Positions 61,528 through 62,108 of a DNA stretch of 64,000 nucleotides are shown in pieces (position 1 is the first letter of the stretch; every line of letters begins with the position of its first letter). Source of the DNA: Escherichia coli (lineage in GTDB: Bacteria > Pseudomonadota > Gammaproteobacteria > Enterobacterales > Enterobacteriaceae); assembly GCF_003334305.1 (NCBI RefSeq), contig NZ_QOWS01000013.1; one strand, 5' to 3'. The translations under genes and the position numbers were made by a program. Under the pieces are notes generated by a model. The model had not been told where the DNA came from. It ran no database searches and worked only from the letters and a program-made list of their open reading frames with translations.

Positions 61528-62108
61528 ACGCGCGCCTCGCATTCGCCCCCTTGTTGTCCTTTTCGCATCGGTTAATACGGTGAAGAGGGGATCTCAATTA
61601 CTGCATAAATATGATGAGCAGGCTGCTCATCCAGAAAGCTTCCAGCGGATTTCCAACTTATCGGGAAAGCTGATACAGGTCAAATGGCAAGCTTATTGGT
61701 ACAGAAATGTGCTTTAGCGCAAAATTCTTTATTAAATGACTGAAATTAAAATAGATTTTATCTTTAAGGCTAAAAGGGAAGTCGTTAGAGAAACAGTCAA
61801 TTCCTGACTGTCATAAAGGCGTGTTAACCCTTATCCTGCCTTGAACTGACGAGAAAACCAGCATTTTATACTGCCTTAATTGGTAATGACGTTTCATGCT
61901 ACTGTTTTTGCCTAAAATCCATAAGGAGATAAAAAAATCTGACACAAGATAAGCAAAAGTGATTTATGTGATTATGCATGAAATTTCGGTAATTTTGATT
62001 GATTATGCAGTTGATAAAAGCAGGCCGGGACGATTGATCCAGGTCATCGCAGAATTGAGCTAAAAATGGCAGGCTTTGGCCTCTTTTCAAGGCGCGGTCT
62101 ATCAGATT

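Follow-up and report, generated by a model that had tools for sequence, protein, structure and literature searches.

A repeated 9-mer between gltB and yhcC of Escherichia coli very probably marks a tandem ArgR operator and the yhcC start rather than one element

The control region between the divergent genes gltB and yhcC of Escherichia coli carries three copies of a 9-mer, GATTATGCA. A sequence-only reading of this DNA had proposed that the copies mark binding sites for a regulator of gltBD such as Lrp, or that they belong to the yhcC promoter. We asked what the repeat stands for, using the whole stretch of DNA that had been read (64,000 nucleotides, the window in what follows; all positions are those of the window). 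According to RefSeq, gltB starts with the ATG at 61434 on the − strand, while yhcC, now also annotated mnmL, starts with the ATG at 62109–62111 on the + strand. Counted from the RefSeq gltB ATG, the spacer is 61435–62108 (674 bp, 43% GC); a border previously set at 61528 had been derived from an older, longer gltB open reading frame. The program-made list of open reading frames extends gltB 31–36 codons upstream of the RefSeq start (61527/61542 vs 61434). A segment of 801 bp around the repeat matches 5417 of 5426 complete E. coli genomes, with 100% identity to strain A7 and 99.4% to K-12 MG1655.

Three exact copies of GATTATGCA were found in the whole 64-kb window, all on the + strand: copy 1 at 61970–61978, copy 2 at 62001–62009 and copy 3 at 62105–62113, with spacings of 31 and 104 bp. 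The original count is thereby confirmed, and the flanks quoted with it were correct: T comes after copy 1 and GTT after copies 2 and 3, and a 12-mer, GATTATGCAGTT, is common to the latter two. Shuffled sequence is expected to hold 0.70 copies, and 1 of 100 shuffles reached three. Of 5000 dinucleotide shuffles of the region, 43 contained some 9-mer at least three times, five distinct loci in the 64-kb window have a 9-mer triple within 586 bp, and with one mismatch allowed GATTATGCA was found 18 times against 18.2 expected, i.e. without enrichment. The repeat is real, but by statistics alone it is only mildly unusual.

To place the copies on the published gltBDF map, we transferred the numbering of Paul et al. 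(2007; PMC1784095) to the window. These authors reported IHF at −75 to −113, a CRP site at −76 to −55, Lrp sites at −152, −215 and −246, and an ArgR DNase I footprint at −361 to −318. Their mutagenic primers gltcrp1/2 locate the CRP half-sites at 61708–61712 and 61719–61723; the 22-mer CRP site is then 61705–61726, and this anchor puts the gltB +1 at 61650. The stretch bounded by primers gltP1/gltP2, 61976–61644, is as long as the '−325 to +8' fragment (333 bp), which gives +1 = 61651. By inspection, a gltB promoter of the form TTGACC-17-TAAGTT lies at the expected place on the − strand (−35 at 61678–61683, −10 at 61655–61660, +1 at ∼61650). In the same numbering the three Lrp sites map to ∼61802, ∼61866 and ∼61897. 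The site at −215 coincides with CAGCATTTTATACTG (61859–61873), the single best match of the region to the Lrp consensus YAGHAWATTWTDCTR (14 of 15 positions, 1 mismatch), and −152 coincides with the palindrome ACAGTCAattccTGACTGT, centred at 61802; because both sites fall where they should, the numbering frame is good to within 1 bp.

The ArgR footprint accordingly covers 61968–62011 (+1 = 61650) or 61969–62012 (+1 = 61651), and copies 1 and 2 lie in it. The FNR site given at −399.5 by Grainger et al. implies a gltB transcription start site (TSS) 9 nt downstream of the +1 of Paul et al., and two conventions for this TSS appear to be in circulation. In the frame of Grainger et al. (+1 at 61641 vs 61650) the footprint would move to ∼61959–62002, covering copy 1 and only the edge of copy 2.

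Scanning the whole window with the ARG-box consensus WNTGAATWWWWATTCANW for pairs 2–3 bp apart with at most 8 summed mismatches returned only two, 61973–62011 and 38819–38856. The first comprises the putative ARG box 1, TATGCATGAAATTTCGGT (61973–61990, 4 mismatches), and ARG box 2, TTTGATTGATTATGCAGT (61994–62011, 3 mismatches), which form tandem 18-bp imperfect palindromes with a 3-bp spacer (aat), 39 bp in total. Among 3000 shuffles of the spacer, 4 contained a pair as good. The match is mediocre for each box, and we infer the box borders from the consensus together with the footprint coordinates. The second pair (5 + 2 mismatches, 2-bp spacer) is the autoregulatory operator of argR itself, 25 bp upstream of the argR coding sequence (38324–38794, − strand), and provided a built-in positive control of the scan. 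Like the argR operator, the pair in the gltB–yhcC spacer consists of two 18-bp imperfect palindromes matching WNTGAATWWWWATTCANW, 2–3 bp apart, which are bound by hexameric ArgR with L-arginine and exert negative control. Unlike that of argR, it sits ∼340 bp upstream of the gltB TSS and ∼80–100 bp upstream of the yhcC TSS, and in E. coli both of its outer half-sites are of the TGCA variant.

Binding of ArgR in this region has been published. With L-arginine, ArgR binds upstream of gltBDF with a Kd of ∼1.8 nM; arginine halves gltB-lacZ expression, deletion of argR doubles gltB expression, and the arginine effect is lost once DNA upstream of −270 is removed (PMC1784095). In vivo, ArgR is enriched ∼60-fold at the gltB promoter (ChIP-qPCR, ChIP-exo), its association upstream of yhcC was confirmed by EMSA (PMC4381063), and the ArgR regulon lists yhcC. 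Lrp is not displaced by ArgR, which alters the RNA polymerase pattern obtained with Lrp and IHF (PMC1784095). On this basis, hexameric ArgR with L-arginine on 61973–62011 would roughly halve gltBDF transcription from ∼340 bp upstream, probably by disturbing the Lrp–IHF–RNA polymerase activation complex and not by displacing Lrp. The position of the operator away from the core promoter would account for a modest (∼2-fold) repression that is not simple promoter occlusion.

How do two boxes 21 bp apart give rise to direct repeats 31 bp apart? Copy 1 consists of a flanking GAT plus positions 1–6 of box 1 (TATGCA), and thus takes in the left half-site TGCAT. Copy 2 occupies positions 8–16 of box 2, i.e. 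its A/T-rich centre and the right half-site ATGCA. Since the 9-mer stands in different registers in the two boxes, it is not a recognition unit. The half-sites concerned are both variants: box 1 has TGCAT for TGAAT on its left, and box 2 has ATGCA for ATTCA on its right. Because ATGCAT is self-complementary, two inverted half-sites are read as a direct repeat, which also explains the mismatch between the 31-bp copy spacing and the 21-bp box spacing. The GATT beyond the half-site core would be mere A/T-rich context. Taken together, copies 1 and 2 are very probably parts of a tandem ARG-box operator for ArgR and copy 3 marks the yhcC start, and the three do not form one element; the repeat arises incidentally, from a half-site variant that is self-complementary and from a start-codon coincidence. 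The regulatory proposal of the sequence-only reading thus holds for copies 1 and 2, with ArgR, which it had listed only for checking, in place of Lrp. We also considered a third ARG box at copy 3 (62098–62115) and rejected it: it has 6 mismatches with a poor left half, and it lies outside the ∼93-bp region of in vivo ArgR contact (PMC4381063).

We then compared the loci of 80 other species of Enterobacteriaceae, fetched through YhcC. The best ARG pair within 800 bp upstream of yhcC had the 3-bp architecture and the same place in 77 of 80 loci, with summed mismatches averaging 6.7. Among the 76 loci with a locatable gltB start, the pair begins 134–137 bp upstream of the yhcC ATG in 74, while anything from 522 to 553 bp separates it from the gltB ATG. 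At the left half-site of box 1, 72 loci have TGAAT and 7, mostly Escherichia, have TGCAT; the right half-site of box 2 is ATGCA in 54 and ATTCA in 24. The literal 9-mer was seen at copy 1 in none of the 80 loci and at copy 2 in ∼15, but at copy 3 in 79. Even within E. coli, 3208 of 5426 complete genomes have the 54 bp that surround copies 1 and 2 at ≥ 99% identity, which over this length means no mismatch; at these two copies, GATTGTGCA, GATTTTGCA or AATTATGCA is found in other strains. The predicted operator is therefore conserved and the literal repeat is not. Lack of conservation in other enterobacteria, combined with lack of overlap with any mapped site, had been named as what would speak against a regulatory role; copies 1 and 2 are indeed not conserved, yet they overlap the footprinted ArgR site, and the ARG boxes underlying them are conserved although the copies as such are not.

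The distance from ARG box 1 to an FNR box further towards yhcC is 61 or 62 bp in all 79 species compared, and the 22–23 bp between box 2 and the FNR box have 69 different sequences. Such fixed spacing without conserved sequence suggests that the ArgR operator is phased with the yhcC promoter and with that of G0-10702, a divergent non-coding RNA (ncRNA) candidate, and hints that ArgR acts on this promoter pair as well as on gltB. Two further blocks of the spacer are conserved: ATAAGcAAAAGTgATT (61949–61964), directly upstream of ARG box 1, and ACTGTTTTT (61900–61909), which adjoins the distal Lrp site (∼61897).

Copy 3 has a different setting. It covers the yhcC/mnmL ATG (62109–62111) and the first two bases of codon 2. 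The TSS of yhcC has been mapped to 3354077, and G0-10702 to 3354064–3354169 on the opposite strand (Supplementary Table S1, PMC7967276). Transferred from U00096.3 by equating the yhcC ATG at 3354050 with 62109 (as a check, gltB at 3354725 falls correctly on 61434), the yhcC TSS is 62082 on the + strand, and G0-10702 occupies 61990–62095 on the − strand, with its TSS at 62095 and transcription towards gltB. The ncRNA candidate overlaps the 5′ end of yhcC mRNA by 14 nt and contains copy 2, as antisense, in its 3′ part. These positions speak against the proposed assignment of the repeat to the yhcC promoter: relative to the yhcC TSS, copy 3 occupies +24 to +32, in the 5′ UTR and start codon, and copies 1 and 2 are 70–110 bp upstream of this TSS.

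The yhcC promoter itself can be recognized. An FNR box, TTGATccagGTCAT (62034–62047, centre 62040.5), is identical in 75 of 80 species and stands at −41.5 from the yhcC TSS, a class II position. Grainger et al., who had yhcC/gltB as a ChIP-chip target, predicted for it the FNR site CGGCGATGACCTGGATCAATCGTC, which is 62029–62052 in reverse complement and contains this box; yhcC has been classed as directly FNR-activated (Myers et al.), and YhcC replaces MnmC oxidase activity anaerobically (2026 preprint). A putative extended −10, TGgCAGGCT (62067–62075, + strand), is invariant. The yhcC/mnmL promoter thus resembles class II FNR promoters in having a box TTGAT-N4-GTCAT centred 41.5 bp upstream of the TSS; copy 3 lies outside both the FNR box and the yhcC −10, downstream of the TSS at the start codon.

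On the − strand, a candidate promoter for G0-10702 can be drawn at 62104–62131 from the published TSS, with a predicted −35 TTGACT (62131–62126, invariant in 80 of 80 species) and a predicted −10 TAATCT (62109–62104, invariant in 79 of 80), a 16-nt spacer, and 8 nt from the −10 to the TSS at 62095. Copy 3 covers five of the six bases of TAATCT, which matches the consensus at only three of six positions. EcoCyc once dropped G0-10702 because evidence was lacking; the RNA is reported to be Hfq-dependent. A block of ∼120 bp (∼62030–62150), which includes copy 3, is near-invariant across 80 species and would hold two overlapping divergent promoters, the FNR-activated class II promoter of yhcC and that of G0-10702. 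The invariance extends to synonymous sites: third positions are near-invariant over yhcC codons 1–14 (62109–62150) in the 80 species, and in codons 1–10 the majority base has a frequency of 0.97 vs 0.60–0.76 further into the gene. These frozen sites are best explained by the overlapping G0-10702 promoter on the − strand, whose −35 would fall at codons 6–8; a Shine–Dalgarno-less, A/U-rich translation start may also contribute. Copy 3 would owe its conservation to three overlapping constraints, namely the start codon, codon 2, and five of the six bases of the predicted divergent −10.

Several other features of the block were noted. A hairpin with a pyrimidine-rich loop (62078–62096) straddles the yhcC TSS (62082) and the G0-10702 5′ end (62095) and covaries between species (GCCU/AGGC, UCCC/GGGA, CACC/GGUG, CCCC/GGGG, CCUC/GAGG); its stability was no better than that of shuffles. 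Folding of 62028–62152 on either strand, and of sub-segments, gave z-scores of −0.8 to +1.7, i.e. no stable RNA structure around copy 3; RNAalifold returned −11.8 kcal/mol with almost no covariation, and Rfam had no meaningful match in 61300–62400 (best E = 0.59, far below the gathering score). An upstream open reading frame from a conserved ATG/GTG at 62066 was discarded: in E. coli its frame differs from that of yhcC, and by inspection the frame changes from species to species through indels in the hairpin region, with a stop in some. A σ54 promoter at TGGCAGGC was likewise discarded by inspection, its GG-to-GC spacing being 1–2 nt too short. The MarA site reported for yhcC<>gltB of Salmonella Typhimurium was not found in two Salmonella loci, and it is not GATTATGCA-like. 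As annotated, G0-10702 has its 3′ end within the 3 bp between the ARG boxes, so that the RNA runs through both the FNR box and ARG box 2; its − strand sequence (61990–62095) shows no terminator.

Could the shared 12-mer instead reflect RNA pairing? Copy 2, present as antisense in G0-10702 (AACUGCAUAAUC), might pair in trans with copy 3 (GAUUAUGCAGUU) and control yhcC translation. In E. coli there are 12 nt of perfect complementarity across the yhcC/mnmL start codon, and RNAduplex, which ignores intramolecular structure, gave a duplex of −40.7 kcal/mol vs −27.5 ± 4.4 for shuffled ncRNA, with 0.8% of the shuffles as good. At least nine contiguous pairs were found in 51 of 80 sequences (the window and 79 loci), and the reported Hfq dependence of G0-10702 fits such a role. 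However, the pairing match was chosen after the fact, being the very repeat under study, and spacers of 680 bp in which a 12-mer is repeated are not rare across the genome; the 3′ end of G0-10702, taken from RNA-seq, is approximate. In 25 of the 80 sequences, those with an ATTCA-type box 2, pairing is down to 4–6 bp and both elements are still conserved; because they are conserved where pairing is so reduced, the ARG-box and start-codon constraints suffice without it. We therefore consider pairing unlikely. If it did occur, an ncRNA running from the yhcC leader through the ArgR operator could control translation of an anaerobic tRNA-modification enzyme, and arginine, through ArgR occupancy, would be coupled to yhcC output.

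A further alternative takes all three copies as − strand −10 elements, the motif TGCATAATC with a −10-like hexamer (CATAAT or TAATCT) marking three promoters that fire towards gltB. Copy 3 does overlap the predicted G0-10702 −10, 8 nt upstream of the TSS, with the invariant TTGACT 16 nt further up. By inspection, copies 1 and 2 have no acceptable −35 at 16–18 nt, and published TSS data (PMC7967276) list no − strand TSS near 61960 or 61990, 62095 being the sole one. A promoter scan returned no σ70-like site in the region, by a criterion too strict even for the known gltB promoter. Moreover, the 9-mer is not conserved at copies 1 and 2, in contrast to the ARG-box positions around them. As an account of all three copies this is very improbable; the − strand −10 reading would hold for copy 3 only.

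The proposal that Lrp recognizes the 9-mer at all three copies, for gltB and/or yhcC, is hardly credible, although gltBDF is known to be Lrp-activated (PMC1784095) and copy 3 in its context TATCAGATTATGCAG has only 3 mismatches to the Lrp consensus: such 3-mismatch 15-mers number 61 in 64 kb, so that this match is background, copies 1 and 2 have 5–6 mismatches, the footprinted Lrp sites are 70–200 bp away from them, spacings of 31 and 104 bp share no common register, and the 9-mer is missing in other species at copy 1 and mostly at copy 2 (see above). The Lrp sites of gltBDF and the copies of GATTATGCA are alike in occupying the same intergenic region, in being A/T-rich, in occurring in several copies and in distant action; they differ in position and consensus, and the copies are outside the Lrp-protected region.

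With copies 1 and 2 read as an ArgR operator and copy 3 as the yhcC start, everything essential is already published: ArgR upstream of gltBDF was footprinted in 2007 (PMC1784095) and confirmed genome-wide in 2015 (PMC4381063), and earlier work likewise covers the FNR site, the yhcC TSS and the divergent ncRNA candidate. What is gained is a map at base resolution, in which reports from separate papers are reconciled along a single sequence. Possibly new are the constant ARG-to-FNR distance of 61–62 bp across 79 species, with a spacer of variable sequence, and the attribution of the frozen synonymous sites at the start of yhcC to a divergent promoter that overlaps them.

Lastly, some observations concern the gltB leader. 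A sequence overlapping the motif, TTATGCAGT, has three exact copies in the window vs 0.42 expected, the third being inverted, at 61600–61608 on the − strand, inside this conserved leader; predicted pairing of G0-10702 with the leader copy was not better than with shuffles (fraction 0.32). The gltB 5′ UTR (61434–61650, − strand) is ∼217 nt long and very highly conserved in 77 species from the −10 element to ∼+120. It contains a perfect 8-bp hairpin, GATGAGCAgccTGCTCATC, at 61631–61613 (+20 to +38), and the hairpin is followed by AUAUUUAUGCAGUAAUUGAGAU, within which lies a two-codon mini-ORF (AUG CAG UAA).
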